Positions 45,092-63,341 are shown, counted from the first letter of the stretch. The stretch is 64,000 nt of DNA from Candidatus Bipolaricaulota bacterium (GCA_030606565.1 JAUWGE010000002.1:36107-100106); one strand, 5' to 3'. Translations and numbers: made by a program. Notes: a model not told the origin generated them from the letters alone.

Positions 45092-45125
45092 TCCAAGCTA
45101 AACCTACGGGATGCGCAGGAGGAAT

Positions 45126-45392
45126 TCAACTTGAAGGAGAAGGAAAATGCCCTTTAAGGAAACGATTCTCGTCGAGGAGCAGGGCTACCTGTGCGTCCTT
45201 TTCGGCAAGGCGCGCCCGCAGCTCAGTGATGACGCCGTCCCTCTCAAGGGCGTCTTGGGTAGCACAGGCATTGATGACCTGCCGCAGGTACTTCACCTCT
45301 TCAGCAAGAACCCGCTCAAGGTCACAGGCGAAATCGATCTCATCGAGTGAGACCCGAGAAAGGAGCTTATCCATGAACTCGTGCATCTCCAT
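45126..45392 (-). CDS. hypothetical small protein
   Basis: 88 aa ORF upstream of prfA on the same strand. Helical/charged composition. No family recognised. Confidence 0.4.
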   Translation of the reverse strand: MEMHEFMDKLLSRVSLDEIDFACDLERVLAEEVKYLRQVINACATQDALERDGVITELRARLAEKDAQVALLLDENRFLKGHFPSPSS

Positions 45393-46851: not shown

Positions 46852-46889
46852 TGATCCTCCTCCGCGGAATTGCTACCATGTACGATAGG

Positions 46890-48884: not shown

Positions 48885-51712
48885 ACGTCCTTCGTGTAAA
48901 AGGCGCCAGAGAGCACAACCTAAAAAACATCGACCTGGAAATCCCACGTGATCAACTGGTCGTCATCACCGGGATCTCCGGATCGGGAAAGAGCTCACTC
49001 GCCTTTGACACGATCTATGCCGAGGGGCAACGCCGCTACGTGGAGTCGCTCTCCGCCTATGCCCGACAGTTCCTCGGCCAGATGGAAAAACCGGATGTTG
49101 ACTTTATCGAAGGGCTTTCACCGGCGATCTCCATCGATCAGAAGACGCGTAGCCACAACCCGCGTTCGACCGTGGGGACGGTGACTGAGATATACGACTA
49201 CCTGCGACTCCTTTATGCCCGCATCGGGCATCCTCACTGCCCCCGGTGTGGCCAGCCGATCACGCAACAGTCGGCGCAACAGATCATCGACGCGATCATG
49301 GCCTTCCCACAAGGGACCAAGGTACAGATCCTCGCTCCGGTGGTGCAGGGTCGCAAGGGGGAGTACAGAAAGACGTTTACGGAGATCCGTCAGGAGGGGT
49401 TCACCCGCGTGCGCGTCGACGGGGTCACCCGCACCCTATACGAGGAGATCGAGCTCGTCAAGCAGAAGAAGCACACGATCGACATCGTGGTCGACCGGGT
49501 GGTCGTGGAGCCGCGCAAGCGCTCCCGGATCGCCGACTCGGTGGAGACTGCCCTAAAGCGCGGGGGAGGAGTCATAAACGTCATCACTGGCAAGGGAGAA
49601 GAACACCTCTACAGCGATCACTACGCCTGTATCCATTGTGGGGTGAGCTACAATGAGCTCTCCCCGCGGATGTTCTCGTTTAACAATCCCTACGGTGCCT
49701 GCCCAGAGTGTAGCGGCCTGGGCTATCGCAAGGAGATCGATCCTGAGCTTATCGTCGATCAAACCCGTAGCCTTGAAGGCGGGGGGCTGCTCCCATGGGC
49801 GAATTCCAAGAGCCGCTGGTTCGAAGCGGAGATGAGCGCCCTGTGCGAGATGTTTGATATCGATCCCAACCTCCCTCTGGGAGATCTTCCAGCGGAGAAA
49901 CTAGATCTGATCCTTCACGGGACGCGAGGAACAAAAATCAAGTTTGACTACACCTCCACAAAAGGTCGTACACGCACCTACATTCGTGCTTTTAATGGCG
50001 TGATCCCCACCCTCGAGCGCTGGTATCGTGAGACCAGCTCACAGGAGTGGCGTCAGGAGATGGAGCAGTTCATCGCCACCCTTCCCTGCCCGGCCTGCCA
50101 CGGTGCGCGGTTGAAACCGGAGATCCTGGCGGTGACCGTAGACGGGCTTAACATCCACCAGGTGACAGCCCTCTCCATTCGCAGCACCCTCACCTTCTTT
50201 GAGAACCTCTCGCTTTCTTCTCGCGAGGAGATGATCGCTTCCCAGATCTTAAAGGAGATAAGAGCGCGGCTTGCGTTCATGGTGGCAGTCGGCATTGACT
50301 ACCTCACCCTTGACCGCGAGGCAGGGACCCTCGCCGGGGGGGAGGCGCAGCGAATCCGGCTCGCCACCCAAATCGGGAGCCAGTTGACCGGGGTCCTTTA
50401 CGTCCTCGATGAGCCATCGATCGGTCTGCACCAGCGGGACAACCGCCGACTGCTTAAAACGCTCAAGGAGTTGCGCGATCTGGGAAACACGGTGATCGTG
50501 GTGGAACACGATGAGGAGACGATGCGCGAGAGTGACTACATTATCGACCTTGGTCCCGGCGCCGGGGCGCACGGCGGCGAGGTCGTAGTGGCAGGAACTG
50601 CTGAGGAGGTCGCCGCCTGTCCGGGCTCGATCACCGGCCAGTACCTCGCGGGGACCCTTTCCATTCCCATCCCAAAGCTGCGACGTGATGGAAACGGGAA
50701 GTCCCTGCGGGTGGTCGGTGCCGCAGTGCACAATCTTAAAGAAATCGACGTAGAGATCCCACTTTCCCGCTTCGTCTGCGTGACAGGGGTCTCTGGATCG
50801 GGAAAGAGCTCCCTCATCGAGGACGTCCTCTACCGCGGCCTCGCCCATCGTCTTCACCAAGCGGCCCGCCGGCCCGGTGAGCACCAAGACATCCTCGGGA
50901 TCGAGGGGATCGACAAGGTGATCGAGATCGACCAGTCCCCGATCGGCCGCACCCCCCGCTCCAATCCGGCAACCTACACCAAGCTGTTCGACGACATCCG
51001 AGCTCTGTTCGCCCGCACTCCGGACGCCAGACTGCGTGGCTACACGGCAGGACGGTTCAGTTTCAACGTCAAAGGAGGGCGCTGCGAGGCCTGTCAGGGA
51101 CAGGGGAAAGAGAAGATCGAGATGCACTTTCTTCCCGATATTTATGTCCCGTGCGAGGTGTGCAAAGGCACCCGTTACAACCGCGAGACCCTGCAGATCC
51201 GCTACAAAGGAAAGTCGATCGCCGATGTGCTTAAGATGTCGGTGGAGGAAGCGCTCACCTTCTTTACAAACATCCCGCGCGTGCGCAGAAGGCTTCAAAC
51301 CCTCTACGATGTCGGCCTCTCCTACATCGAACTCGGTCAGCCAGCGCCGGAGCTCTCCGGGGGGGAGGCACAGCGGATAAAGCTTTCAAAGGAGCTCTCC
51401 CGTCGTTCCACCGGGAGGACCCTTTATATCCTCGACGAGCCGACGACAGGGCTTCACGCTGCCGATGTGCGAAAGCTCCTCCAGGTCCTTCACCGGCTCG
51501 TTGATGGGGGGAACACCGTGGTGGTGATCGAGCACAACCTCGACGTGGTCAAGACAGCCGACTGGATTATCGACCTTGGCCCTGAGGGGGGCGATGCCGG
51601 CGGGAGGGTGATCGCTACGGGGACCCCGGAACAGATCGCGAAGACCCCTGGCTCCTACACGGGGGAGTACCTGACCGAGATCCTAAAAGCGAAGCTCTCT
51701 TCACCCACCTGA
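48881..51712 (+). CDS. uvrA: excinuclease ABC subunit A
   Basis: 943 aa starting [65 protein letters not shown]. Two ABC modules and zinc-finger Cys clusters. Start overlaps the uvrB stop. Confidence 0.92.
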
Positions 51713-51733
51713 GCAGTGCAAGAGTTGAGTGGT

Positions 51734-52492
51734 CTATTCCTTGTGGTACACATCGGCGAAGCGGTTTTGTGCGATGATGTTGTCGTGCATTTCAACACTT
51801 ATAACATAGCTTCCGATGCGTACCCCTACGCCCTGCTCGAGGTTCCAGCCATTGTCGGTTATCGTACAGCCGGTGATGATGAGATGCTCCACGGACTGGG
51901 CGTCCATCCCGTCCATCCCGTTTGCGATGAGTTGGCAGTCCTCCACCCGCAACTCGCTAATCTTCCCCCGCGGGCCGATGATGTGAATCCCGGTCCACTC
52001 GTTTTCTTCGATGTGGCAGTTGCGGATTGTGATCCGATCGATCACCTCGCGGTTGACCTCGATTCCGTGTCCGCTGGACATGTTCTTGCGCGCGCCGGTG
52101 ACCGCAATACGATCGAGGATGACTCCGTCGGCATCGACCTCCACCGTGCCCCAGATGTCGGCCATTTCCTCAGCATCTGCATCGGTCGTTACCGTTATGC
52201 GCGGGGTGAGGATCCATACATCCACCTTGTACTGACCGGGGTCAAGCACGATTACGTCGCCGGGATGGGCCTCGATATGCGTATCGAACCAGTCCGTGTT
52301 CCGCACGCCGTTTGCCCCCTGCCACACGGCGATGTCAAGCGGCACCTGTACATCATCAACAATCTTGTAGAACGACTCAGCGATGAGCACCGTGCCCGCG
52401 AAGGGCGCGTCGGCGGGGATGTAAATCTCGGCCCCGATGACGAGAACACCGAAAACAACTGCAACAATGACCACAGCAAGAACATTTTTCAT
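51734..52492 (-). CDS. secreted right-handed parallel beta-helix repeat protein
   Basis: Signal peptide MKNVLAVVIVAVVFGVLVIGA. Repeated beta-helix rungs with Asn/Gly ladders (ITIRNCHIEENEWTGIHII; CTITDNGWNLEQGVGVRI; HDNIIAQNRF). Confidence 0.65.
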   Translation of the reverse strand: MKNVLAVVIVAVVFGVLVIGAEIYIPADAPFAGTVLIAESFYKIVDDVQVPLDIAVWQGANGVRNTDWFDTHIEAHPGDVIVLDPGQYKVDVWILTPRITVTTDADAEEMADIWGTVEVDADGVILDRIAVTGARKNMSSGHGIEVNREVIDRITIRNCHIEENEWTGIHIIGPRGKISELRVEDCQLIANGMDGMDAQSVEHLIITGCTITDNGWNLEQGVGVRIGSYVISVEMHDNIIAQNRFADVYHKE

Positions 52493-52545
52493 CTATGAAT
52501 CCTCCTTAACGATTAACATAACACGAACAACAGACAAAGGCAAGA

Positions 52546-52571
52546 CAAAAAAGGGGAGTGTCCCCCTTTTT
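52546..52571 (-). terminator. rho-independent terminator hairpin (functional on the minus strand; A/T-flanked on both sides)
   Basis: AAAAAAGGGGAGTGTCCCCCTTTTT lies immediately 3' of the stop of the 52578..54662 gene. GGGGA/TCCCC stem with T-run on the minus strand. Confidence 0.6.
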
Positions 52572-52577
52572 GTCGTT

Positions 52578-54662
52578 CTAGATCGTTAGATCAAGCTTAA
52601 TCTGAAGGATCAGTTCATCGCTATCCTTTGTTGGATCATTCCAGTCTACTACGTTCTTCCACGCCAAGGAGAAGGAGATGTCCAGACCATCGGCGATCTC
52701 TCCGTCCCACGAGAGCTCAGCGTGGCGCGTTTCCTTGACCAATGTCTCATTTGACAGGGCTGTCAACGTCCGCTTCGTCTCATCGCTCAGCTGGAGCTGA
52801 AAGGTTCCTTCTGCGACCTCCCAAGAGGTGTCCAGGCTGATTGTCGTCTCCCTCGAAGTGGGTTTAGCGGCATTATTGGGGTGAGCGGTCACCTTGTTTG
52901 TGAGTCCAGCCGAAATGCTCGCCTCAGAAAGATCGAAATCGAGCTGTAGACCGATCTCCTGTACCCATTGGTCCTTCTTGCTGGCGTGAGGGTAGGTCGT
53001 CTGTTGATGAAAGAGCGTCAGCGCAAGGTCGCCGCAGGCCATCTCATTCTCGACTGATCCCTCCCATTTTCGCAAGGAACGGTTCTTGACCGTAGCATTG
53101 GGGTAGACCAGTTCTTCTCGCTCGAGATAGCCGCTGATCGTGGATGCGGACTCATCCCTGGTGTAGCTCACCTTTTGGGTAGACGTGTCACGATTGAGCA
53201 GGCTATCCGCCGGGTAGGTCTTGTTCTCCCACTCAAGGTCGAGCGTCAGGTCTCCGTCATGGAATGGGAAGCCGCACGACAACGGGATGTCAAGCTGCCG
53301 AATTCGCTTACGCGGAAGGATCAACAGCGCCTTGTCCGCCAAGAGCTGGGCAGCGTCGGAGGTGATATCACCATCCCATTTCGCATCGTAGACCTCATCG
53401 ATGAAATCCTCCAACTGGTCGACGGCCTCTCTGCGATCCCCGGCTACAAGTTCCCCCAACGCGCCCTCTTCTCCCAACTCCTTTAGCAGGTCATCTTCCA
53501 CCGCTGCGGGCAGCCCCAATGCGCGCACCTCGTCGATGAGACTCTGAATCGCTGCAATCGCTTGTGAAACCCGGGCGGGCTCAATCTCATCGTCGATATA
53601 GTTTGGGTAGGACTCGGAGTCAAAGGAGACCGACCCCGATGCCGCCCAAGGATCGCGATCCCAAGAGAGCGCAAGGTCGAGACTGTGGCTGATCCTGTCT
53701 TTATCGTCCTTCAACCGGTCCGTGTAATCACGATGTTCCTGCTCGTAGTTGATAGAGGTCCCCCAGTCCTCATCTTCAAACCCCGCCCCAATCTCCAAGT
53801 CCGTCGTATGAACGTCCTTGCTCGGGGCACGGTAGTCATCCGACTCCCAAGTGAGCGTACCATCGAGGTCAATACCCCCAACCGTAGTCGATAGCTCTAG
53901 CTCCCAGAGGCGCTCTGTCCCCTGCTCTTGCACCTTTCGCAGCAGGTAGTCGCCCTTGTACCTGATCCTGTCTGCCTCTTCCTCCTTGATCGCCTCGCCA
54001 CGGTATTGATCAATACGGACTAGAAGCTTCTCTAAATCGCGAATATAGTCTGCCTTGTTGCCATCGGTGAGGTGAAGGACGGTCTCCCGCAAGAGGCTCG
54101 CGATCTGCGGCTTCACCTCATCCCTTGTGTATTTTCTGACCTTGTTTACGATGCACTTCAAGTAGTCGTAGCGTTGCTCGATCGGCTTTGCAACGACAAG
54201 GAGCCTTCCCTTATCCGTACGAGAGATTTCTAGGCAATCGTTCACACGATCGATAAACTGCTTGTCAAGTGCCTTCTCGATGTCCTTCAGCTTATGATAT
54301 AGAGTATCGATTGAGATCCCATTGCCAGCGTTCCTGATCTCAGCAAGAGCAGCCTCAGCCTGCCCGAGCGCCTGTTCCAATGTGTCTTTAAGCGTGCCTG
54401 GGGGCAGGGTGTCTGTCTCGCTGCGAAGGTCATTTAGCGTTCTAAGACTCACTCCACTTAAAACCCCTTCCACGGTGTAGTCCACGTCCATCGATATATC
54501 CGCAAGCGCAGAGGAAAGAGTAAACTGCGATTCTAAGTTAAGCTTTTGCTCGGCAAGGCCTACGATGTCCTGGGTGAAGGAGAGCGCATCCTCCTGTTTA
54601 AAATCGATCGTTTGCGAGAGGGCCGGCGGGGTTAGAAAAAGGAAAAACAAAGCCCAAATCAC
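52578..54662 (-). CDS. large hypothetical secreted protein (acidic, beta-rich C-terminal half)
   Basis: 694 aa with signal peptide MIWALFFLFLTPPALSQ. No recognisable catalytic motif. The C-terminal third has an alternating hydrophobic pattern suggestive of beta structure. Confidence 0.55.
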   Translation of the reverse strand: MIWALFFLFLTPPALSQTIDFKQEDALSFTQDIVGLAEQKLNLESQFTLSSALADISMDVDYTVEGVLSGVSLRTLNDLRSETDTLPPGTLKDTLEQALGQAEAALAEIRNAGNGISIDTLYHKLKDIEKALDKQFIDRVNDCLEISRTDKGRLLVVAKPIEQRYDYLKCIVNKVRKYTRDEVKPQIASLLRETVLHLTDGNKADYIRDLEKLLVRIDQYRGEAIKEEEADRIRYKGDYLLRKVQEQGTERLWELELSTTVGGIDLDGTLTWESDDYRAPSKDVHTTDLEIGAGFEDEDWGTSINYEQEHRDYTDRLKDDKDRISHSLDLALSWDRDPWAASGSVSFDSESYPNYIDDEIEPARVSQAIAAIQSLIDEVRALGLPAAVEDDLLKELGEEGALGELVAGDRREAVDQLEDFIDEVYDAKWDGDITSDAAQLLADKALLILPRKRIRQLDIPLSCGFPFHDGDLTLDLEWENKTYPADSLLNRDTSTQKVSYTRDESASTISGYLEREELVYPNATVKNRSLRKWEGSVENEMACGDLALTLFHQQTTYPHASKKDQWVQEIGLQLDFDLSEASISAGLTNKVTAHPNNAAKPTSRETTISLDTSWEVAEGTFQLQLSDETKRTLTALSNETLVKETRHAELSWDGEIADGLDISFSLAWKNVVDWNDPTKDSDELILQIKLDLTI

Positions 54663-54805
54663 AAAAAAGCTTCCAAAGAAGCCATCCCGCTGCGAGCCTA
54701 TCTTTCACCTCCATAGAATGCCGTAGGGTCCGTGACCCCATGACCCCAAAGTATGCCCGTCACCTGTTGTAAAATTCAATGGTAGACCCCATACTACGAC
54801 GCGCC

Positions 54806-54922
54806 TTAGAGACCTGGTCTTTGGCTGATTGCTGAGAGCTGCCCGCTGATAGCTTTTTACCGCAGAAGCGCTGAAGTCACAGAGTGAAGTGACATGGTAG
54901 AGGCGCGAATTGCGGTATCCCG
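54806..54922 (+). repeat. intergenic repeat family, copy A (core ~117 bp)
   Basis: TTAGAGACCTGGTCTTTGGCTGATTGCTGAGAGCTGCCCGCTGATAGCTTTTTACCGCAGAAGCGCTGAAGTCACAGAGTG...GGCGCGAATTGCGGTATCCCG aligns with copy B (55950..) and copy C (57069..). Confidence 0.8.
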
Positions 54923-55040
54923 CCCCCCTCTCCCTCTCTCCCCATCGCCCCCTCTCCCTCTCCGCACTCTCCGCCCTCCGCATTCCGAACTCATCCTTCC
55001 CTCTTCCTCTTCTCTTTTCCCCACCGGTCCAGTACAGTAA
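54923..55040 (+). repeat. polypyrimidine (CT-rich) tract following repeat copy A, ending in the shared tail TTTTCCCCACCGGTCCAGTACAGTAA
   Basis: About 100 nt that are almost entirely C/T on the + strand (CCCCCTCTCCCTCTCTCCCC...). A similar tract and tail follow copy C at 57181..57292. Confidence 0.8.
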
Positions 55041-55149
55041 TAGAGGGGTTATCTTTGTGCTGGTGCCAAGCGGTTGTCTATCTCTTGTCTTTGAGTTATC
55101 ATAAAATTGATTGGGCTGATTAGAAGGGCAGGAGGGGAGGGAGTACGCT

Positions 55150-55425
55150 ATGGCGGTGAGTACCAAGATCCCGAATGATCTGGATAAGCAAACCTTTGCC
55201 AAGCGGGCTAAAGCCCTTTACAACCACAGATACCGCAAGAGACTTGAAGCGGCCGAGTGGGGTAAAGTAATTGCCATTGAAGTGGAAAGCGGGGAGGTTT
55301 TCATCGGCCGTACAGCTTTGGAAGCTGGATTAAAGGCTCGAGAGAAATATCCTGATAAGTTCTTCTACTTTATCCGGATCGGATATCCGGCAGTTCACTG
55401 TCTAAAGAGCCCTGGCAAGCCGTGA
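55150..55425 (+). CDS. small partner protein of retropepsin-like protease module (DUF5678-like)
   Basis: 91 aa with a ...GKVIAIEVESGEVFIGRTALEAGLKAREKYPDKFFYFIRIG pattern. The stop overlaps the start of the downstream protease gene. Confidence 0.55.
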   Translation: MAVSTKIPNDLDKQTFAKRAKALYNHRYRKRLEAAEWGKVIAIEVESGEVFIGRTALEAGLKAREKYPDKFFYFIRIGYPAVHCLKSPGKP

Positions 55426-55805
55426 GTTATCTCGGAAAGGTGTTCTTACAAGGGTTCATCAACGATAATCTGGAGCCAATAGTGGAGAACGTTATCTTAG
55501 TCGGTAAGGAAGAGCGGATTTCACTAGAAGCCATTCTGGACACCGGTTTTAATGGGATGTGCTGCTTGCCAAGGAAGTTCCAACCCCTGTGCGAGCTCAA
55601 TGCTCTCGGCATAGAAACTTTCGAGTTAGCCGATGGAACCTTGGTTGAAGAAGAACTATACGTGGGACAAATTCTCGTGGGTGACGTTTGTTATTCCGTT
55701 GAGCTGACCCTGACTGATGCCGATCGAGCCCTGTTAGGTATGCAATTGTTGCTAGATAAAGTTGCTATCTTCGACCTTAAGACGATGCGAATCGAGGTGA
55801 AATAA
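55422..55805 (+). CDS. retropepsin-like (clan AA) aspartic protease
   Basis: 127 aa with the catalytic motif ILDTGFNGMC (D-T-G), which is a retroviral-type aspartyl protease fold signature. Translationally coupled to the upstream small gene. Confidence 0.65.
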   Translation: MSYLGKVFLQGFINDNLEPIVENVILVGKEERISLEAILDTGFNGMCCLPRKFQPLCELNALGIETFELADGTLVEEELYVGQILVGDVCYSVELTLTDADRALLGMQLLLDKVAIFDLKTMRIEVK

Positions 55806-55949
55806 GGAGCGGGTTCAGTTGGAGCCCTGGTATGGTATGCGCACAACCGGTCGCTGTGGCTCGATCTGATCATTCGGTAAACCGCGGGTCTACGCAACGC
55901 TAGTCGAGAATCGATGCACTACTACCTTCCAGCAATCAGTTTGCGCATC

Positions 55950-56080
55950 TTAGAGGCCTGGTCTTTGGTTGGCAACTGGCAGCTGATAGCTTTTTACCGC
56001 AGAGGCCTTGAAGTCACAGAGTGGGGATGACACGTTAAGGGCGCGAATCGCGGTATCCCGAAATCATTTTGTGTCAAGTG
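55950..56080 (+). repeat. intergenic repeat family, copy B
   Basis: TTAGAGGCCTGGTCTTTGGTTGGCAACTGGCAGCTGATAGCTTTTTACCGCAGAGGCCTTGAAGTCACAGAGTGGGGATGACACGTTAAGGGCGCGAATCGCGGTATCCCGAAATCATTTTGTGTCAAGTG. Confidence 0.8.
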
Positions 56081-56148
56081 CCCCCGGGTCCTATGGACAT
56101 CAGACTTCGGACTAAGTAGACTATCAGCTATAGGAAGGGGTGTTTTTA

Positions 56149-56445
56149 ATGGTGCTAACAGTACGGACGCAAGAGCTGCTGGAAAAGGTATTGGCAGTCC
56201 TGCCGACTGCTGAGGATGAGGTTATCACTAAGGGCATCACCAGTAGCGTGGCCGATCGGATTCTGGAGTTGAAGAGATCCGCCCACCGCTTGAAGGAGAC
56301 CTATGGCAACGTTGAGAAGCTGGAGAAACGGATCGAGGAGGAAAGTGTCTCCGCGGACGATCATACACTCTACAATGACCTCCTGGAGTGGCGGGCAACT
56401 CTGGACGAGTTGGATAAACTGTTGCAGATTCTAGAATCCCTCTGA
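56149..56445 (+). CDS. hypothetical small helical protein (first gene of a coupled small-gene string)
   Basis: Start MVLTVRTQELLEKV... with an RBS-like GGAAGGGG upstream. The stop overlaps the next start (TGATG). Confidence 0.45.
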   Translation: MVLTVRTQELLEKVLAVLPTAEDEVITKGITSSVADRILELKRSAHRLKETYGNVEKLEKRIEEESVSADDHTLYNDLLEWRATLDELDKLLQILESL

Positions 56446-56843
56446 TGCCAGTCTCTCCGTCTTGGCACCAGAGGGTTCGAACCAGCCTAGAAGCGTCGGG
56501 TATCTTTGCTGGTGTGAAGATCATAGGAGCTAAGGTGCGCGGGGTCATCAGCAAGGAGCTGTATGTGGACATCTATTATGACCCAACCACCAACAGTTAC
56601 TCCTATGCCTTGATCGATCAAACCCTTCCCTATCCAGGGGACAAGCGAGTCTTTCTTTGGGTGGGATGACTATCCACACAAGAACGTGCGGAAATCAAAC
56701 AGCTCGAAAGCTTCCCGCACCATTTCCAGAAACGAAACAAAGAAGGATGGATCTTTGAGGAGTCTCCGATGCGCGGGAACGTGAAGGGCGAGATGGACTT
56801 GGTAATCAAAATGGTGAAAGAATATCTGAAAACATCAACATGA
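56445..56843 (+). pseudogene. small ORF interrupted by an in-frame TGA at 56667-56669; the frame stays coding-like to 56843
   Basis: Reads MPVSPSWHQRVRTSLEASGIFAGVKIIGAKVRGVISKELYVDIYYDPTTNSYSYALIDQTLPYPGDKRVFLWVG, then TGA, then continues in the same frame as LSTQERAEIKQLESFPHHFQKRNKEGWIFEESPMRGNVKGEMDLVIKMVKEYLKTST. Confidence 0.4.
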
Positions 56844-57022
56844 GAATTGAGCAGTTTGAGGATCTTTTAAGACCCTACGTTGAGGGTTTCAGATTTATGG
56901 AAGATGGTTCAAGTCAAGAAATTGGTTTAAGGATATTGAAATTTGGAGAGCGGCGAGGAGCTGTCCCAAGAAGGCAGCCTTCAGCAATCATGATTCAGCG
57001 GTCAGGAAGTGACAATCAGTGA
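56840..57022 (+). CDS. hypothetical small protein (third coupled ORF)
   Basis: 60 aa, with ATGA start/stop overlap with the preceding reading frame. Weak support. Confidence 0.3.
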   Translation: MRIEQFEDLLRPYVEGFRFMEDGSSQEIGLRILKFGERRGAVPRRQPSAIMIQRSGSDNQ

Positions 57023-57068
57023 TCAGTTTACAACAACCCATTACTCACCGGCTTTCACGCTTTTGCTT

Positions 57069-57171
57069 CTGGCTGAATGCTAATTTACCGGTAGAGGCGC
57101 TGAGGTTGCAGCGAGAGATGACACGTCAAGGGCGCGGATCGCGGTATCCCAAAATCGTTTTGTGTCAAGTG
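57069..57171 (+). repeat. intergenic repeat family, copy C
   Basis: CTGGCTGAATGCTAATTTACCGGTAGAGGCGCTGAGGTTGCAGCGAGAGATGACACGTCAAGGGCGCGGATCGCGGTATCCCAAAATCGTTTTGTGTCAAGTG. Its 3' half is nearly identical to copy B. Confidence 0.8.
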
Positions 57172-57180
57172 TAGGCCTGA

Positions 57181-57292
57181 CCCTCTGCTGCCCCTGCCTC
57201 GACTTGCTTTTCCTTCTCCCCCTCTCCGTGTCGCCCCCTCTCCCTATCTCTCCTTTTCCCCTTCGGCTTTTCCCCACCGATCCGGTATACTA
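57181..57292 (+). repeat. polypyrimidine (CT-rich) tract following repeat copy C, ending in the shared tail TTTTCCCCACCGATCCGGTATACTAA
   Basis: CCCTCTGCTGCCCCTGCCTCGACTTGCTTTTCCTTCTCCCCCTCTCCGTGTCGCCCCCTCTCCCTATCTCTCCTTTTCCCC... It sits directly upstream of the RBS of the 57310 gene. Confidence 0.8.
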
Positions 57293-57309
57293 AGAAAATC
57301 CAACCGGAG

Positions 57310-58117
57310 GTGAGTCTCATGATGAGACGGCCTTACTTCATCCTTCTTTCCTTGCTGCTCATCGCGGTCCCTATTCTTGGCGGTGACTTGCCCCAGGTCG
57401 TTCAGCCTAACACAACAGGCTATTCGGCCACAGAGGTTGCCGCTCTTGTCCGAGAGATCTCCGCCCTCGAAGAAACGCTCAACGATCATTCCTTCGGCTC
57501 ACGGCGCAGCTTTGCCCCCAACGGGTGGCAGGGCCGCAACTTTGCCGAGTACACCGGGGGAGTCCTCGCCGAGCGGGGATACCCAATTACGCTCGCCAGC
57601 CAACCTGGCTGGCCCGACGGCGTCCATACGTGGGCTCTCAACTGGAGGACAAACGGCCTGGGTCCCGGTGGAAGCCTCCCCGGAACCTGGGAACAGCCAG
57701 CGGAGCCTCGGCTATGTCCCGAGCTATTCAGACAGTACCGGAGACCTGTGGTTCGAGGCGACGTATCTTGACTTCAACGAGGCAGTGAGCCTGCCGGCAA
57801 ATCTCCCACCCGTTGCGAAGATTCGCCCACCCTCCCCTCCTGTTGTGATCAATAAGGGCGTCAGAATCTTCACGGTTGGTTCTCACGACCCAGATGGGGA
57901 AATCGTGCTTTATCGATGGGACTTTGGCGATGGAAATATCAAGACAGCCACAGCATCCAGCATCCGCCACAAGTTCAGAAGACCCGGCACCCATACCGTC
58001 TCCTTGACCGTTGTTGACAACCGCGGCAAGAGCGCTGCCACCAGCGTCACCATCTCGGTTATGGAGCCTGATGGGAGTGTAGCCCCATCCGACGGGGGGT
58101 GTGGGTGTGGGACTTGA
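57310..58117 (+). pseudogene. secreted PKD-domain protein, apparent frameshift between ORFs 57310..57771 and 57377..58117
   Basis: Signal peptide MMRRPYFILLSLLLIAVPILG in frame 1. The PKD domain (YRWDFGDGNIKTATASSIRHKFRRPGTHTVSLTVVDNRGKSAATSVTISV) is in frame 2. The plausible junction is near 57690-57710. Confidence 0.55.
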
Positions 58118-58476
58118 AGATGAACTGAACCGCTTCATTGTGTTCGTTTCCGAGAAGGAGGCCCAACTACTTGAGCAAGTTCCAACGGTACGTCAAACGA
58201 TCGCTTGCTCTCCTCCTATGGCTTACTGGCACGGATAGTCTGACTATCCCGTTTTGAGCTAGCCGTTGAAAACAGGCTCTTCTTACGGTAGTTACTAGAC
58301 TGTAGTTTTCGATCCCAGGGGCCTGTCATCATAAAATCCCGAGATGAGGAAGCCTTTTATCTTCCAGGCTGTATAAAACAAAACCCTCTTTTCTCCTTCC
58401 TTTATCCACAGAACCTAAGAACCAAAAAAGGGCCCTGGCGAACCAGGGCCCTGTATTCACTTGAGTTAAACCTGGG

Positions 58477-60426
58477 CTACCAAATGAAGCCAAAACCCAG
58501 GCTGAAGATCTCCCATCCGCGGAAGGAAACCTCGGAACCAACGGTGAGGGTGAAGTTCGAGAAGAGCGAGACGCTGACATTGACGTCGGTCGCCATCCAG
58601 CTAAACAGCTGGTTGAGCTGGCCGACCTCGGTGTAGTTGGCGTCCTGTGTGAACTCACAGTAGTATACGGGTTCCGCCGGATCCAGGAAGCAGCACTCTT
58701 TCTCATAATCTTTAATGCAGATGCAGCCACAGAACTCTGGATCGGCCTCGTACTCCTTCCCGATGTAGTTGTCGATTGTGATCTCGTAGGCGCCGCCGCA
58801 GCAGGCATCCCCAGCGAGCACGATACCGAACGACTCCCAGGCGTAGTACTTGTACTTGGGCGTCTCCCAGTACTCGAGGTGGATCCCATCGTCAGGACCC
58901 GTGAGGTCGCCGTCGCCATCGTCTTCGAACGGCGGACACCAAGCGGCACAGCCAGTCGGAACGAGGAACCGCAGCATCTCATCCGATGAGATCGTCTTTA
59001 AAGCGTTTGTCGGCAGGTCGTAAAGCACGGTCTTGAAGGTAGCCGTTGCGCCGTTGAACTCACAGGTGAGCGAGAAGTCCTTGATGTCGATCCCGGTCAG
59101 CTTGTTCGCGATAGAGTTGTGTGACTCGTCCTCTTTCCAGTTGGCGAGAAGGGTCATGCTGAAACAGGTATCGAGCCCGAAGCTGGGCTGGCCGCACAGC
59201 GCGAACTCCTTCTCATCGGTGGTTAACTTGATCGAGGCCGTGAGGTCGTAGAAGCCGGGGATGAACGGGATGTCCTTCACGAGGAACTGCAGGTACTCAA
59301 AGCCGACAACCGCCGTCGTGAATGTGCAATCCTCATCCCAGGAAGGCAAGTAGATGGGGATTAGCGTCCCATCAGGCATCACATACTCCTTCAACAGCTC
59401 GTCCTCGCACACGCAGGTGAGGGTCTCCGACTCCTCAGGGCAGACAAGCTTCAGGGCCACATCAAGGGTGGTGTTGCAGCAGAAGGGGATTCCCTCTACC
59501 ATGAAGTATTCCTCGATGAAGCCAATGCCACACCCTGCGGCAACGGCGTAGTTGCCCTTCTTGCCAAGCACGGGACAGCCGGAATCGGTATCCGCCTTCT
59601 TATCCGACTCGGTCATGTTGAAGTAGGTGAAGCTGGTGAAGTTCATACCGCCCACGCTGCCGGCGAGATTCAGCCGGAATCCGGCCCCGATCGGAGTCGA
59701 CCCAGGAACGGTGCAGGTGCCAGTCTGAAGCACGTCTACACCAACAGCATGCGTAGAGCCACTCTGCGGCACGTGCGTCCAGTAGATGTTCTCCGGCATC
59801 TCAACCGGGAATAGGTACTCAGTACAGACGTCCCACAAGAAGATGTCTGTTATGGTGGTCGTCCCGGCCCAGGCGTTCATCAGGAACAGGCCTCCAAGCT
59901 GAACTCCGGCGAGGCTAATATCCACAGCCAGCTCAAAGTCCTTAAACGCTGGCCCAGTTACCTCGGCCCAGCGGTCGAGGCTGCACCCTGGGAAAAGCGT
60001 GAGTACGGTGGTCTTGCAACAGGTAGCGGCGAAATTGTTGTAGAGGTACCAGGGCCAGATCTGGGCTGGGTCAATCCCCCCCCACCATCCCTGCGTCTTT
60101 GTTAGGACGGCAGAAGGCAGGAACTCCATCTTGGCAGCGAGGTTAATCGCCCCGAGGCTGCCTGCGGCGCTGAACTCCTGGGCGTTGAAACCGTGCTGGG
60201 CGTCGAAGCTAGACTTGCTTTCAAAGACGAACCCACCCACGGTATAGTCCACTACCAAGTCGGAACTTAAGCCCCATATCTCCCACCATTGGTAGGGACA
60301 TGGGCTTCCCAACTTATAGAGGTCAAAAGTGTATGTAAAGTCCCAACTGCCTGTAAACGTCTGGGCGGATACTAATGCACCACCCGCCAACACCAACATA
60401 CATGCTATTACGAGAGCTTTCTTCAT
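58477..60426 (-). CDS. large Cys-rich secreted protein, candidate outer-membrane beta-barrel/porin-like partner of the upstream SLH protein
   Basis: 649 aa with signal peptide MKKALVIACMLVLAGGALVSA, more than 30 Cys, beta-rich composition and a C-terminal aromatic end ...SLGFGFIW. The SD AGGAGGTAATGATAG precedes the ATG. Confidence 0.6.
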   Translation of the reverse strand: MKKALVIACMLVLAGGALVSAQTFTGSWDFTYTFDLYKLGSPCPYQWWEIWGLSSDLVVDYTVGGFVFESKSSFDAQHGFNAQEFSAAGSLGAINLAAKMEFLPSAVLTKTQGWWGGIDPAQIWPWYLYNNFAATCCKTTVLTLFPGCSLDRWAEVTGPAFKDFELAVDISLAGVQLGGLFLMNAWAGTTTITDIFLWDVCTEYLFPVEMPENIYWTHVPQSGSTHAVGVDVLQTGTCTVPGSTPIGAGFRLNLAGSVGGMNFTSFTYFNMTESDKKADTDSGCPVLGKKGNYAVAAGCGIGFIEEYFMVEGIPFCCNTTLDVALKLVCPEESETLTCVCEDELLKEYVMPDGTLIPIYLPSWDEDCTFTTAVVGFEYLQFLVKDIPFIPGFYDLTASIKLTTDEKEFALCGQPSFGLDTCFSMTLLANWKEDESHNSIANKLTGIDIKDFSLTCEFNGATATFKTVLYDLPTNALKTISSDEMLRFLVPTGCAAWCPPFEDDGDGDLTGPDDGIHLEYWETPKYKYYAWESFGIVLAGDACCGGAYEITIDNYIGKEYEADPEFCGCICIKDYEKECCFLDPAEPVYYCEFTQDANYTEVGQLNQLFSWMATDVNVSVSLFSNFTLTVGSEVSFRGWEIFSLGFGFIW

Positions 60427-60612
60427 TCTATCATTACCTCCTTACATGTACGTACGTACACTCTCTTTTGCTTTTGACAAGAAGCACGCTCTCTCACCAA
60501 GTTTTTTAAGAGTGTAATCACCTCCTTAGTTCTTGTAGGTTCCGCCTCTCCACTAGATCTTGTCCCTACTATAACACACAAAAAGGTCGATGTCAAGTGA
60601 TCGATATCACCT

Positions 60613-61272
60613 TCAAAGGCCGAGTGTTGCCAGTGCTACAGCGATAATCCCTATAAGAAGTGCCGTCAAAGAGATGATGAAGTTGGCGTTTATGCGATTT
60701 AGGAGCTTTCCAGATGGGCCTTGCTCTTCGAGTTGAGCGATCTGTTGCTCGTTACGCGCTACCCGCGCCTCCAATGGGGAGCTACCCCCTCCCACAAGTG
60801 AGTCCATCTGCGCCTGGAGGCTTGAAAGGTTGTCTGAGACCTTGAATATCAGGTCCTTTAGGATATCTAGATCCTGCGGGGTGACTGACTCGGGGTTGTT
60901 TTGAAGGTAGCGGATCGCTCGCGCGATCAGCGCGGCAGCGGAGTAGCGGTCGAGCGGTTGGTCTCCTTGGTAGCTTCCCCCGGGAAGCCCGGTGATGATC
61001 CCACGCTCGACAAGGTATGAAAGATCATCGTAGGCCCAGTGGTCCCGTGGGACATCACTAAACAGTCCACCGGCCTGCGGTGGCTGCGCAGTTCCATTCC
61101 CTGCTCCCCCATCCCCAAAGGCGATGCCACCCAGAAAAAGGGATAGGGTCGCGATCAACAGGATGACAAATAGATTCTTTTTCACCTTGAAAACCCCCTC
61201 TTCTTCACAGAATCGATAAAGCAGTATAGAGCTTGTTTCGCTCTGAGTCAATAACTGGCTTTTAGCCGCCAA
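60613..61272 (-). CDS. SLH-domain / coiled-coil / C-terminal TM anchor protein (Omp-alpha-like)
   Basis: SLH motif FSDVPRDHWAYDDLSYLVERGIITGLPGGSYQGDQPLDRYSAAALIARAIRYL. Coiled-coil segment (LSSLQAQMDSL...EARVARNEQQIAQLEEQ). C-terminal hydrophobic helix IISLTALLIGIIAVALATLGL. Confidence 0.75.
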   Translation of the reverse strand: MAAKSQLLTQSETSSILLYRFCEEEGVFKVKKNLFVILLIATLSLFLGGIAFGDGGAGNGTAQPPQAGGLFSDVPRDHWAYDDLSYLVERGIITGLPGGSYQGDQPLDRYSAAALIARAIRYLQNNPESVTPQDLDILKDLIFKVSDNLSSLQAQMDSLVGGGSSPLEARVARNEQQIAQLEEQGPSGKLLNRINANFIISLTALLIGIIAVALATLGL

Positions 61273-61372
61273 TCAGCTATCAGCAGTCAGCTAAAAGCCA
61301 AACTGCAAAGACCGACAAGCCAACGTATGAAATGTAGGTTGCTTCTTGCCGTAAGCTGAGAGCTGATCACTG
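61270..61372 (+). repeat. degenerate copies of the intergenic repeat family (one inverted, one direct fragment)
   Basis: CAGCTATCAGC...CAAAGACC (61274-61313) is the reverse complement of the GGTCTTTG...GCTGATAGCTG segment of copies A/B. GCTGAGAGCTGATCAC (61355-61370) matches the CTGAGAGCTG segment of copy A. Confidence 0.55.
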
Positions 61373-62149
61373 CTTCACCTTGAAGCTTCGGCGGTGGATC
61401 GATGATGGACCGAGGCGCTTGAGCGCCGCAAGATGAGCAGGCGTCCCGTATCCCTTGTTAGAATCGAGTCCATATCCAGGGTATTGAGCGTTAAGCTTGA
61501 CCATCATCCGGTCACGATAGACCTTGGCGAGGATGGAAGCAGCCGCGATGTGAAGGGAGCGGGAATCCCCTTTGGTGAACGACAGCGCGGGAGGGCGAGA
61601 AATTGAGTGATTGAGAGATTGAGTGATCGGGGGATTGGAAGATTGAGAGATTGAAAGATTGAGTGATTGAGTGATTGAGTGATCGGATGATTGAGAGATT
61701 GGATGGTTGGGAGTTCTAGGTTGTAAATGATTCAATCTCTCACTCGCTAAATCTCTCAATAGTGTGAGCCCGCGGTCGAGCAGGAGGAGGTCGACCGGGT
61801 GTCTCATGGCGCGATAGGCGCGCTGGGCGGCAAGGGTTAGGGCAAGAACGATCCCGACACGATCGATCTCGGACGGTGTAGCGTAGCCGATCCCCCAGTT
61901 AGAGACGGAAGTGATCCGGGGAAAGAGCGCCTCCCGCCTCTTTGAGGAGACCCGCTTGGAATCGTCGATCCCAGCGAGGAAATCAAGAATCGATGTTCCA
62001 CGTCGGGCATGAAGCCCGACGCTACAGGGATTCCTTTCCTCCTCAACGTCGGGCATGAAGCCCGACGCTACAGGAATGTGGACACAGCAGACGACAACCG
62101 GACCGGCAAGGGCCCCACGACCCACCTCATCGAAGCCGGCAATCTCCAT
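61367..62149 (-). CDS. rnhB: ribonuclease HII with internal low-complexity insertions (the ORF is open to 62467)
   Basis: Canonical N-terminus MEIAGFDEVGRGALAGPVVVCCV at 62149, and C-terminal RNase HII region (SKRREALFPRI..., KGDSRSLHIAAASILAKVYRD). An in-frame 8-bp tandem array and an extra insert (VASGFMPDVEEERNPCSVGLHARRG) interrupt the fold. Confidence 0.8.
   Translation of the reverse strand: MEIAGFDEVGRGALAGPVVVCCVHIPVASGFMPDVEEERNPCSVGLHARRGTSILDFLAGIDDSKRVSSKRREALFPRITSVSNWGIGYATPSEIDRVGIVLALTLAAQRAYRAMRHPVDLLLLDRGLTLLRDLASERLNHLQPRTPNHPISQSSDHSITQSLNLSISQSSNPPITQSLNHSISRPPALSFTKGDSRSLHIAAASILAKVYRDRMMVKLNAQYPGYGLDSNKGYGTPAHLAALKRLGPSSIHRRSFKVKQ
61601..61713 (+). repeat. tandem repeat (GATTGAGN)x14 inside the rnhB reading frame
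   Basis: Fourteen consecutive 8-bp units (gattgagt gattgaga gattgagt gatcgggg gattggaa ...). On the minus strand they encode an 8-aa periodic SITQSLNH-like insert. Inverted partial copies (CAATCTCTCACT, AATCTCTCAAT) follow at 61731-61762. Confidence 0.85.
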
Positions 62150-62453
62150 GGTTTTTATTCTTTTCGTTTCACCGCAGAGATCGCGGAGGCCACAGAGGTT
62201 TTTACCTCTATAGGAGTTCTCCGCGTTCTTTGCGTACCTGGGGGGTGTAGTAAATCCCTCTCCGGACACTACACCCCCCGAGACGGTAGAAGCTTTTGAA
62301 AACGGACGTCGGACGTTGGGGACAAGGCCCTCAACGTCGGGCGTAAAGCCCTCAACGTCGGGCACAAGGCCCTCAACTACAGAGGAGCGGATCTGTTCGT
62401 CGAAGGCGTAGAGCTCACGCACGCGTAAAACAGGTGAGGAGGGGTTCTTGCTC

Positions 62454-63341
62454 CTAGTTTTTGCCATGAAGGCTGAAGTAGCCGTTCATCGGCCCAAAGC
62501 GGGGAAGCGGCCACACACGCAGGTACGGCTCGCCGATGAGGTCGTCCTCATCGACAAATCCCCAGAAACGCGAATCCCAGGAGTCCTCCGAGTTATCCCC
62601 GAGGACAAACCACTTACCTTCCGGGACGAGAGTCGGAGTTACCCCGTAGTGCATACGGGGGTCGCTCGAGGTGTAGTGGCGGTCAAAGCGCGGGCCTTTA
62701 AGTTTCTCTTCGTTTAGATAGATGTCCCCGCCCTTGATATATACGGTTTGCCCTCCTACGGCGATCAGCCGCTTTACATACCGTACTTTCTTTTCACGCC
62801 CCAAAATCCCTAAATCGGCAAGCGAATCGATTCCCACTTCTCTTAACCCCAAGTCCAGTTGGCGGCCTTCATACAATGCAAGATAGATGTGCGTTCCCTC
62901 AGGGAGGGAAGCGATAATCTCATCTGCCCCGGCGGCGACCGCTTGCTGGTTTATATAGATGATCCGATCTTTAACATTAAGACCGGCGCGTGCGGCCCGT
63001 GAGCCGTCTTTTACTTCCTTCACCAGAACCGCTTCGGTGTGCCAAAAGACAACGATGTCCCCTGGCTTGGGATCGCGGAAATAGTAGGAGATCTTATCGA
63101 CAAAGAAACTGTCGGCCACAAGTACACTACGGTCGCCATTGATCGTTGGGTACATCGAATCAGTGGGTACGTGCATGCGCACGGTGACAAAGCTGATCAC
63201 AAGAAAAGCAAGGACACCCGCGACAACAAGGACCTCAACCCACTCCAGGATCTCGCTTGATACTCGCCCGGGGTTATAGCCGAAACGGCGAACCAGGCGC
63301 AGGATGAACGCTTGCTTCTTCTCCTTCTTTTTTCTTTTCAT
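62454..63341 (-). CDS. lepB: signal peptidase I
   Basis: 295 aa with TM anchor, catalytic Ser box PTDSMYPTI, and GDNSEDSWDSRFWGFV (box E). Confidence 0.85.
   Translation of the reverse strand: MKRKKKEKKQAFILRLVRRFGYNPGRVSSEILEWVEVLVVAGVLAFLVISFVTVRMHVPTDSMYPTINGDRSVLVADSFFVDKISYYFRDPKPGDIVVFWHTEAVLVKEVKDGSRAARAGLNVKDRIIYINQQAVAAGADEIIASLPEGTHIYLALYEGRQLDLGLREVGIDSLADLGILGREKKVRYVKRLIAVGGQTVYIKGGDIYLNEEKLKGPRFDRHYTSSDPRMHYGVTPTLVPEGKWFVLGDNSEDSWDSRFWGFVDEDDLIGEPYLRVWPLPRFGPMNGYFSLHGKN

Follow-up and report, generated by a model that had tools for sequence, protein, structure and literature searches.

Between uvrA and rnhB of a Bipolaricaulota genome lies a block of ~10.7 kb (51734–62467 of the 64-kb window, by which we mean the whole stretch of DNA analysed). 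It encodes a beta-helix protein, a 694-aa acidic protein (acid694), a PKD-domain protein, a Cys-rich 649-aa protein and an SLH-domain protein, together with small cassettes and repeats (Table 1). The UvrA encoded beside it is 78% identical to that of a Ca. Bipolaricaulota MAG and 87% to that of the related contig L085. Hydrophobic N-termini were seen by inspection in all five of these proteins. An earlier note on this DNA had described the block as an envelope/secretion accessory island, variable and decaying. Almost every feature that it listed is indeed present in the sequence; of its four large secreted proteins, the 694-aa, PKD and 649-aa proteins stand, but the beta-helix protein, at 252 aa, is not large.

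Table 1 Features of the block and its borders (window coordinates).
Feature	Position	Strand	Remarks
uvrA	48881-51712	+	conserved left flank; DNA 94-99% identical to close relatives up to the stop codon
Beta-helix protein gene, 252 aa	51734-52492	-	NosD-like, right-handed, membrane-anchored; Pfam Beta_helix 47 bits
Terminator-like hairpin, 14-pair stem	52544-52574		separates acidic barrel gene and beta-helix gene
acid694 gene, 694-aa acidic protein	52578-54662	-	pI 4.47, D+E 19.5%
Repeat copy 1	54796-55040	+	GCTGAnn heptamer array, core (54902-54921), CT-rich tract (54922-55040)
Cassette 1	55150-55805	+	p91 (55150-55425, basic) and p127 (55422-55805, putatively retropepsin-like), 4-nt overlap
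Repeat copy 2	55944-56080	+	heptamer array and core
Cassette 2	56140-56839	+	p101 coiled-coil protein (56140-56445) and TumE-type toxin pseudogene (56445-56839)
Remnant mini-ORF	56840-57022	+	beginning of next cassette as in L105; L105 homology stops at ~56928
Repeat copy 3	57084-57293	+	core (57131-57150) and CT-rich tract
PKD-domain secreted protein gene	57310-58117	+	frameshifted; Pfam PKD_4 63 bits
Terminator-like hairpin of 649-aa gene	58452-58429	-	
Cys-rich 649-aa protein gene	58477-60426	-	28 Cys; Sec-type signal peptide; C-terminal ...GFGFIW
Promoter-like site for 649-aa gene	60596-60568	-	TTGACA-17-TATAGT
SLH-domain protein gene	60613-61272	-	Pfam SLH; short helical region and C-terminal hydrophobic anchor
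96-nt module upstream of SLH gene	61271-61366	-	GCTGA heptamers; 99% identical to PKD upstream sequence of L097/L103/L098
rnhB ORF, 366 aa	61367-62467	-	followed by lepB, rplS
8-nt tandem array in rnhB	61597-61713	-	inside 53-aa loop insertion
In-frame insertion in rnhB	61997-62077	-	dimer of GTAG-tagged REP hairpins, +27 aa
lepB-rnhB spacer	62150-62453	-	REP-related repeats (21-nt tandem 62313-62377); right boundary of variable region

The SLH protein is the candidate for the anchor protein that had been proposed. Its SLH domain at residues 71–109 scores 32.3 bits against Pfam SLH (cutoff 20.8), and the NCBIfam model por_somb matches its N-terminal part (E 1.5e-11). By inspection, its C-terminus, ...INANFIISLTALLIGIIAVALATLGL, is a hydrophobic membrane anchor and there is no barrel in the chain. 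The GTG at 61197 is the likely start, and the protein is 194–219 aa long with ~60 residues between SLH domain and anchor. The 649-aa protein, which would be the SLH protein's barrel partner, has a large outer-membrane beta-barrel as its predicted fold: it carries the signal peptide and aromatic C-terminal residue of such proteins, and its predicted strands are amphipathic and antiparallel and close the barrel. A profile search with it returned 188 cluster representatives, of which the few that name a source come from Bipolaricaulota and are annotated as hypothetical.

This arrangement recalls Omp-alpha, an SLH and coiled-coil protein, with its adjacent beta-barrel Omp-beta, which form the tether of Thermotogae. 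A split, OmpM-like system of SLH protein and adjacent barrel has also been reported for Bipolaricaulota, with CsaB said to be nearby (Witwinowski et al., bioRxiv 10.1101/2021.05.31.446380; Sexton et al., PMC10160955). As in these bipartite systems, the SLH gene lies immediately upstream of the gene for a signal-peptide-bearing predicted barrel, the pair is conserved in relatives, and the SLH protein shares with Omp-alpha an SLH domain at its N-terminus, a helical stretch and, at the C-terminus, a hydrophobic anchor. However, it is about half as long as Thermotoga Omp-alpha (~400 aa) and too short for the long central coiled coil that forms the 45–50-nm rod there. The barrel is of a large class (best matches, 22-strand barrels), its likeness to Omp-beta lies in adjacency and predicted fold, and this allele carries 28 cysteines, most of them in predicted loops. 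Unlike in the reported Bipolaricaulota system, no CsaB was found among the ORFs scanned in the window.

A second outer-membrane beta-barrel is predicted for acid694, interrupted by two helical bundles (residues ~76–245 and 362–448). The AF2 models are of moderate confidence, with a pTM of 0.36 for acid694, and its family was found solely in Bipolaricaulota/Acetothermia. The beta-helix gene adjoins uvrA in relatives too, yet its product is only 61–71% identical to near-conspecific copies (dS 1.1–1.8). The cell-surface character suggested for the block is supported by its SLH tether, its two predicted outer-membrane barrels, its PKD protein and its beta-helix protein with a membrane anchor.

The acidic barrel gene and the PKD gene diverge from a gap that comprises the middle 2.6 kb and forms a slot with two cassettes. 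The three repeats described there are indeed related through a shared 20-nt core, GGCGCGAATTGCGGTATCCC (three copies against a chance expectation of 0.04, and absent from the rest of the 64 kb); the CT-rich tracts attributed to them are present in copies 1 and 3 but missing from copy 2. In relatives, the tract of copy 3 forms the native upstream region of the PKD gene. Cassette 1 is low in GC and codon-atypical, 97–99% identical in L087 and L105, and its proteins are 70–80% identical to those of Chloroflexota MAGs. Calling p127 retropepsin-like is weak but plausible, given a DTGF motif and a match to TIGR03698 clan_AA_DTGF below the cutoff (30.4 versus 57.35 bits, E 3.6e-7); Pfam gag-asp_proteas matches at an E of only 0.06. 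In cassette 2, the string of overlapping mini-ORFs noted before (56140–57022) turned out to be a decayed two-gene TumE-type cassette. Its TumE gene carries a 4-nt TCTT duplication (56650–56653), an in-frame TGA (56667–56669) and a 1-nt deletion after 56688, and after manual frame correction its product scores 31.4 bits against Pfam TumE (PF20126; cutoff 23.4). The PKD gene changes frame at 57617–57639. In six relatives it is a single intact frame of 270–280 aa with the C-terminus GCGCG[KNG].

TumE–TumA is a type II toxin–antitoxin module (Durairaj et al. 2023, PMC10584680). The slot resembles such systems in its two-gene modules with overlapping or abutting ORFs, in the frame-corrected TumE that passes the Pfam threshold, and in what relatives hold in the same place: RelB/YafQ in L105, HEPN/MNT in L087 and HicB in L089. 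Unlike TumE–TumA, there is no intact TumE ORF with a cognate antitoxin, given the +4/−1 indel pair and the in-frame TGA. Upstream of TumE, the partner gene encodes p101, a coiled-coil protein that lacks any recognised DNA-binding domain and showed no antitoxin-type domain in the Pfam scan. The retropepsin-like pair is not an established toxin–antitoxin family.

At the right border, the lepB–rnhB spacer is stop-free in the rnhB frame, and the 366-aa ORF is therefore inflated; RNase HII probably starts at M107, giving a core at 61367–62149 on the minus strand. The same two RNase HII loops are occupied across several diverged lineages with differing repeat content. The 8-nt array in one of them differs in length from that of L093 by ~24 codons, near a whole number of 24-nt steps. 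In the other, the REP unit consists of GTAG and CGTCGGGC-TTCAT-GCCCGACG with an 8-bp stem, and a folding energy of −50 kcal/mol (z −6.2) was obtained for the dimer; GTAGCGTCGGGCTTCATGCCCGACG is present twice in rnhB. Stem-loop copies number eight in L085, six in L097 and two each in L093 and L102, against none in 1.37 Mb of other-phylum loci. REPs of this type are associated with a RAYT transposase; beyond the block, 29 of the longer ORFs were scanned and none matched a transposase family. Intragenic GTAG-tagged REPs are often dimers encoding 20–30 aa and often lie in replication or repair genes, according to Di Nocera et al. 2013 (PMC3733652). The elements here share the palindrome with GTAG at one end, the multiple copies and the dimer adding ~27 residues in a replication/repair gene, but they occur in Bipolaricaulota, which is not among the phyla named in the passage on them in that paper. 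GTAG-tagged REPs, in-frame intragenic ones included, and the Rickettsia palindromic elements are the closest known kinds.

Comparison with close relatives revealed a sharp contrast between the block and its surroundings. Flanks are 94–99% identical (UvrA, 98–99%), against 61–81% for the beta-helix and acidic-barrel alleles. In L091, DNA identity is 94–99% over most of 44500–51700, 51–85% over 52000–54400 and 92% at the acid694 5′ end. On the right, L003 is 99.7% identical up to its contig end at 62387, and L097 is 99% identical over 62387–62485 (99 nt only), followed by 81–92% in rnhB, 82% in SLH and 72% in the barrel. The drop in identity and the rise in synonymous divergence are bounded by the stop codons of uvrA and lepB. 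In four genomes whose UvrA is 98–99% identical, the beta-helix and acidic barrel genes fall into three allele classes. Barrel types are 100, 80, 56 or 28% identical while SLH stays at 92–96%, and at 92–94% relative to the copies of close relatives even beside a swapped barrel. An optional Ala-rich protein of ~1,100 aa lies between SLH and rnhB in L105, L106 and L097. Since the comparators are single contigs from several different metagenomes, we infer the co-occurrence of alleles in one population.

Surface proteins far less conserved than the flanks, with a divergence that shifts gradually and not in one step, could also arise by accelerated evolution in place under positive selection, without allele exchange. 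We consider this improbable. The synonymous divergence inside the block is itself 5–15 times the flank value (dS 1.1–1.8 for the beta-helix gene and 0.61–0.63 for acid694, versus 0.09–0.13 for uvrA/uvrB), and dN/dS is 0.16–0.36 rather than above 1. Within acid694, synonymous divergence is a mosaic, with per-window pS from 0.10 to 0.77. Moreover, in one genome (UvrA 98.6%, SLH 94%) the barrel and PKD region is swapped for 28%-identical or non-homologous genes, and the same alleles recur in different metagenomes (L086 = L087 = L088; L091 is ~95–96% identical to L105). The claim of variability holds for alleles and populations, with very different alleles or non-homologous replacements confined to exactly this block, but not for gene order.

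That order is kept. The backbone rnhB, SLH, beta-barrel, PKD, (slot), acidic barrel, beta-helix, uvrA was seen in ~20 related contigs, and its order and orientation hold down to 87% UvrA identity, where L085 reads rplS-lepB-rnhB-SLH-barrel718-PKD274-betahelix249-(RmuC)-uvrA-uvrB. The rnhB-SLH-barrel-PKD part is preserved in 13 metagenome loci and acid707-betahelix-uvrA-uvrB in L086, L091 and L105. In the more distant Bipolaricaulota MAG L005 (UvrA 78%), uvrA is followed only by a PKD-repeat protein, and the cluster is therefore clade-wide rather than demonstrably phylum-wide. The earlier note had named a conserved syntenic block of intact genes with uniform composition as what would overturn its reading; half of this is seen, since the order is conserved but the genes are neither uniform nor all intact.

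A horizontally acquired envelope or secretion island, inserted between adjacent core genes and now decaying, would account for the abrupt change in identity at the stop of uvrA and close to that of lepB, for the pseudogenes and repeats, and for the foreign-looking composition of the cassettes. Nevertheless, it is very unlikely in view of the conserved synteny, and uvrA directly adjoins rnhB in none of the relatives examined. The five large genes are host-typical in GC3 and codon usage (|z| ~1.5 or less for composition), and the protein families were found in the Bipolaricaulota phylum only. There is no tRNA gene within ~8 kb of the block and no integrase or transposase Pfam domain in the island ORFs or the called genes of related loci. 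The patchier composition once ascribed to the block is not borne out either: 1-kb GC is 0.49–0.57 against 0.475–0.62 window-wide, with equally deep dips elsewhere, and only the four small cassette genes deviate (z ~−1.7 to −4 on GC and codon-fit measures).

The number of modules in the slot ranges from two in the window to ~9 in L105 (among them HTH/Xre, retropepsin pair, RelB/YafQ, TumE pair, PDDEXK_3 and DUF4258). Shared cassettes are 96–98% identical in DNA while their neighbours are 67–71% identical in protein. Could the repeat be the recombination site of a site-specific recombinase, bounding each small cassette in an integron-like array? A copy precedes each of the two window cassettes at a spacing of ~1,140 nt, genomes differ in the order of their cassettes, the junctions falling at the repeat core, and the repeat is 92–97% conserved between genomes where neighbouring genes are ~70% identical. 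Yet the ~9-module array of L105 has a single core copy, no integrase Pfam domain is present in the called genes of the 20-kb L105 and L085 loci or in the island ORFs, and no attC-like R′/R″ motif was seen by inspection of the aligned copies. The repeat also has no stable fold (z −0.6 to −1.0), a weak consensus structure and no Rfam match, which leaves such an array with very little probability.

Both frameshifts and the in-frame stop reported before are confirmed, the frameshifts lying in the PKD and TumE genes and the stop in the TumE gene. An assembly or binning artefact, in the form of a chimeric, frameshifted consensus of co-occurring strains, is hardly credible, even though repeat-rich hypervariable regions are difficult to assemble and independent contigs break or diverge at ~62387 (L003 ends and L097 starts there), since an independent Logan contig from run SRR14876846 matches with 100% identity along 7,737 nt (51512–59248), both frameshift sites included, these sites lie outside long homopolymers, and the allele classes are reproduced in unrelated metagenomes. 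Because this assembly is identical and the breaks in TumE fall at other sites in L105/L106 than in the window, we regard the decay as real. It concerns only the PKD gene and the toxin cassette, not the rest of the block as formerly implied.

Taken together, these data suggest that the region is probably a chromosomal gene cluster for a toga-like outer-membrane structure, maintained as a replacement-type hypervariable island. We regard the block as one more variable surface island of a kind already known, with a decaying toxin–antitoxin slot, and not as a foreign insertion; the label of accessory island is not supported. Replacement flexible genomic islands, or 'metagenomic islands', encode exposed cell structures (Lopez-Perez et al. 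2014, PMC4033161), other cases being the cell-wall island of Haloquadratum (PMC4535781) and Salinibacter (PMC2800850). The block resembles them in its constant chromosomal position, near-identical flanks, and divergent or non-homologous content of the same functional class, with mostly synonymous divergence climbing towards the island. In contrast to those cases, it belongs to an uncultured deep-branching phylum and is known from single contigs of several metagenomes rather than isolates, and the swapped genes are for structural outer-membrane barrels instead of glycosyltransferases or S-layer proteins.

In such a toga-like cluster, the SLH protein would bind the cell wall and reach across the periplasm, placing its hydrophobic C-terminal segment at the outer membrane. 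The 649-aa and acidic barrels may be the major outer-membrane proteins, and the PKD and beta-helix proteins may have accessory roles at the surface or in the periplasm. As exposed targets, for example for phages, whose pressure is conjecture, they might lead the population to keep different versions. Alleles could then be exchanged by homologous recombination through the conserved flanks and internal stretches such as the SLH gene and the acidic barrel 5′ end. The promoter gap would gather mobile addiction-type cassettes that later decay, and REP hairpins and short tandem repeats would populate the spacers and the two rnhB loops.

A more speculative and rather doubtful extension is that a protein-rich, toga-like outer layer is built mainly from the products of this cluster, with a major barrel that is freely exchangeable. 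A near-invariant SLH tether (92–96%) might then serve barrels that are 56% or 28% identical and have 9 to 28 cysteines, the link being generic and made through the membrane helix at the C-terminus, not through a specific protein–protein fit. With the Cys-rich allele, the surface might be cross-linked by disulfides or metal, comparable to the chlamydial outer-membrane complex.

No Bipolaricaulota are in culture, and what is known of their envelope comes from gene inventories only. The locus gathers what are likely major outer-membrane proteins and varies more than any other part of genomes that are otherwise nearly identical, offering concrete targets for proteomics, cryo-ET and phage–host work. 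It also warns that Bipolaricaulota MAGs will break or be mis-assembled here. The findings do not overturn current understanding; they add a deep-branching phylum to the range of replacement islands for exposed structures and of in-frame REP insertions in repair genes.

ORF mapping and family scans of the stretch between uvrA and rnhB (51.7-62.4 kb) gave the layout listed below. An earlier note, made from the sequence alone, had read this block as a variable, decaying accessory island of surface genes, and the features that it described, composition excepted, were accurate as judged by the ORF map, the family scans and the repeat counts. The finding is real, its boundaries are meaningful and its components are all of known kinds.

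Features of the uvrA-rnhB block and its immediate flanks (window coordinates)
Feature	Position	Strand	Basis
uvrA	48881-51712	+	ORF map + family scans
Beta-helix protein, 252 aa, N-terminal membrane anchor	51734-52492	-	ORF map + family scans
Acidic protein, 694 aa, pI 4.47	52578-54662	-	ORF map + family scans
Repeat 1	about 54796-55040		
p91 + p127	55150-55805	+	ORF map + family scans
Repeat 2	55944-56080		
p101 + overlapping mini-ORFs	56140-57022	+	ORF map + family scans
Repeat 3	57084-57293		
PKD gene, split over two frames	57310-58117	+	ORF map + family scans
649-aa protein, 28 cysteines	58477-60426	-	ORF map + family scans
SLH protein	60613-61272	-	ORF map + family scans
RNase HII ORF, 366 aa	61367-62467	-	ORF map + family scans
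lepB, then rplS	from 62454	-	ORF map + family scans

Comparison loci from metagenomes or MAGs revealed the variability at the population level. Against L091 (UvrA 98.9% identical), DNA identity was 94-99% across most of 44500-51700, dropped to 51-85% over the beta-helix and acidic barrel genes (52000-54400) and returned to 92% at the 5' end of the acidic barrel gene. The dS was 0.09-0.13 for uvrA/uvrB, 1.1-1.8 for the beta-helix gene and 0.61-0.63 for the mosaic 694-aa gene (pS 0.10-0.77 per 60 codons). In the same comparisons dN/dS was 0.16-0.36, indicating old exchanged alleles rather than a burst of amino-acid change. To the right of the block, L003 matched the window at 99.7% from 63700 to the end of its contig at 62387, and L097 was 99% identical over 62387-62485, after which identity was 81-92% for rnhB, 82% for the SLH gene and 72% for the barrel (the 649-aa protein). 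The 178-kb contig L105 (UvrA 98.6%) carries a beta-helix protein 71%, an acidic barrel 67%, a barrel 28% and an SLH protein 94% identical to those of the window, together with a different, three-gene PKD region and a middle-slot array of roughly 7 kb with about nine small modules. Across four genomes with UvrA 98-99% identical, the beta-helix and acidic barrel genes fall into three allele classes, and the same alleles were found again in unrelated samples. In pattern and boundaries this corresponds to the replacement flexible genomic islands that encode exposed structures. The proposed variability was thus borne out, with near-identical flanks against divergent or replaced block genes in L091, L097 and L105, and the variable segment coincides with the interval delimited in the earlier note. 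Separately, an indel of roughly 240 nt separates the window from L091 at 45700-46000, in a left flank otherwise 94-96% identical; this region has a low GC (0.49) and lies near a SurA-like gene (46030-46851).

UvrA shares 78% identity with that of a Candidatus Bipolaricaulota MAG, and the fused LptF/LptG and large SRP RNA of the window fit a diderm deep-branching lineage. The LptF/LptG permease domain occupies residues 1-372 of a 1,060-aa ORF (13773-16955) that continues into a long extension and is a marker of LPS-type export in this diderm lineage; the bacterial large SRP RNA (25077-25342, 161.6 bits) adjoins tRNA-Ser. Exact-protein look-ups of UvrA and the 649-aa protein returned no recorded match. 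A UvrA scan of genome contigs yielded mostly other phyla, and its only Bipolaricaulota locus, the more distant L005, is without the cluster. It was the gene contexts of the homologues of the 649-aa (n=17) and 694-aa (n=35) proteins, whose named sources are Bipolaricaulota/Acetothermia, that settled the question of synteny. L085 (UvrA 87%) has the order rplS-lepB-rnhB-SLH-barrel-PKD-betahelix-RmuC-uvrA-uvrB; rnhB-SLH-barrel-PKD is kept in 13 JGI loci, and acidic protein-betahelix-uvrA-uvrB-SurA-prfA in L086, L091 and L105. In L085 an RmuC gene (14930-16048) separates the beta-helix gene from uvrA; in the window, L091 and L105 these two are 21 nt apart and RmuC is missing from that position. Insertion of a foreign island, as the earlier note implied, is contradicted by this retained order, by the host-like codon fit, GC and GC3 of the five large genes (within about 1.5 sd of 29 window housekeeping genes) and by the lack of integrase or transposase domains among island ORFs or called genes of related loci; no tRNA gene lies closer to the block than about 8 kb. 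The block is native and syntenic within its clade.

The SLH protein combines its SLH domain with a signal/anchor segment, a short helical stretch and a hydrophobic tail at the C-terminus. Paired with the adjacent predicted barrel, it matches the split OmpM-like arrangement of an SLH protein beside a barrel as in Thermotogae, which has been reported for Thermotogae, Bipolaricaulota and Fraserbacteria (Witwinowski et al., bioRxiv 10.1101/2021.05.31.446380). CsaB was not found among 20 of the longer ORFs outside the block. With 188 cluster representatives at E<=1e-3 in a profile search of 1.84 billion proteins, the barrel family is a small one. Against solved structures, the 649-aa family profile had no match and the 694-aa profile nothing significant (E 0.28 or worse). 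PKD proteins end in a conserved ...GCGCG[KNGT] in the window (58090-58117) and in homologues from L085, L095, L097, L098, L102 and L103, a possible signal for sorting or attachment. Three relatives (L097:1108-4446, L105:19192-20384 and L106:9863-10969) encode an extra Ala-rich (AQAEA-type) secreted protein of roughly 1,100 aa between the SLH gene and rnhB; it is absent from the window, where this spacer is only 94 nt.

The middle slot holds two cassettes, p91/p127 and p101 with a broken TumE-type gene. Both have low GC and atypical codons (z about -1.7 to -4 in GC and codon-fit measures), and the patchy composition perceived earlier is confined to these small genes, the block being otherwise ordinary for the window in GC and codon fit. 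p127 (55422-55805) carries a DTGF motif and a below-threshold match to clan-AA proteases. Relatives from 29 JGI contigs share 98% identity with it and those from Chloroflexota MAGs 70-80%, which exceeds the roughly 60-62% of UvrA between these phyla and points to horizontal mobility. A basic 91-aa partner always precedes p127 with a 4-nt overlap, and the pair may be an undescribed addiction-type module. PADLOC did not assign the cassette proteins to any defence system. After frame correction, the second gene of cassette 2 scored above the Pfam threshold for TumE, of the validated TumE-TumA toxin-antitoxin family (PMC10584680). In relatives the same gap holds HEPN/MNT, RelB/YafQ, HicB, Xre-type, PDDEXK_3 and DUF4258 modules; the DNA of cassettes shared between genomes is 96-98% identical, against about 70% in protein for the flanking barrels.

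Decay is also evident. The TumE gene of the window carries a duplicated TCTT and a TGA and has lost 1 nt, and that of L105/L106 has a 2-nt deletion at another site; p127 is frameshifted in L087 and p101 in L105, and the PKD frameshift occurs in the window only, the gene being intact in six relatives. A Logan contig (SRR14876846) is 100% identical to the window over 51512-59248, so the indels do not stem from an error of a single assembler. The suggestion of ongoing decay is upheld only for the PKD gene and the cassette genes.

The three intergenic repeats have in common a GCTGAnn heptamer array and a core of roughly 65 nt (TAAGGGCGCGRATYGCGGTATCCC...TTTTGTGTCAAGTG...). Three copies of a 20-nt stretch of the core were counted where chance would give 0.04, with none elsewhere in the 64 kb, and the core was not found in other phyla (1.37 Mb of loci). 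The CT-rich tract of copies 1 and 3 is the native PKD upstream region in relatives. The core is single-copy in the nine-module array of L105 and therefore is not a per-cassette recombination site, and an integron-like reading of the slot was dropped. A structured-RNA reading was dropped as well: the consensus structure was unconvincing (7 pairs, one covarying), folding energy was no better than that of shuffles, and Rfam gave no match in the block at gathering score, nor at E<=1 over 54600-57400. By position, the core, CT-rich tracts and heptamer arrays lie upstream of predicted promoters. The SLH gene is preceded by a 96-nt module (61271-61366; fold z -2.7) that is 99-100% identical to PKD-gene upstream sequence in L097 (9599-9694), L103 (3250-3343) and L098 (4668-4736), against only 51-87% for the coding genes of these relatives, which suggests a portable upstream element. 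GCTGAnn (or TCAGCnn) arrays (window 54816-54860, 55964-55995 and 61275-61313; L091:1-500 and 1100-1300) occupy many spacers of this locus in the window and its relatives beside 8-nt CCCCCTCT tracts, and resemble the short tandemly repeated sequences of cyanobacteria.

Repeats have also inflated the rnhB ORF. RNase HII most likely starts at M107, and it aligns with solved structures in three blocks between which 27 and 53 extra residues are inserted, with the DEVGRG, DDSK, LLLD and KGDS motifs intact. The first insertion is formed by a dimer of GTAG-CGTCGGGC-TTCAT-GCCCGACG hairpins (-50 kcal/mol, z -6.2), which read VASGFMPDV or CSVGLHARR in two frames; the second holds an 8-nt array of 12.5 copies. 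The same two sites are used with differing repeat content in four diverged lineages (window 61367-62467, L085:7827-8888, L093:49-981 and L097:19-1032), and the ORF is open in all but L085, where a stop falls inside the REP. In the window (61597-61713) the 8-nt (CAATCNCT) array exceeds that of L093 (653-770) by about 24 codons, a difference near a multiple of 24 nt, the step at which an 8-nt unit preserves the reading frame. By their sequence, the hairpin elements fit the GTAG-tagged REP class; a passage in PMC3733652 describes intragenic copies of these REPs as often dimeric, encoding 20-30 residues and frequent in replication/repair genes.

Taken together, the block is a predicted outer-membrane gene cluster of split-OmpM type, conserved in its clade, that acts as a replacement hypervariable island; it also includes a slot for toxin-antitoxin cassettes, REP elements and short tandem repeats. 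The cysteines of the 649-aa protein lie mostly in predicted loops, and one SLH tether would serve very different predicted barrels.
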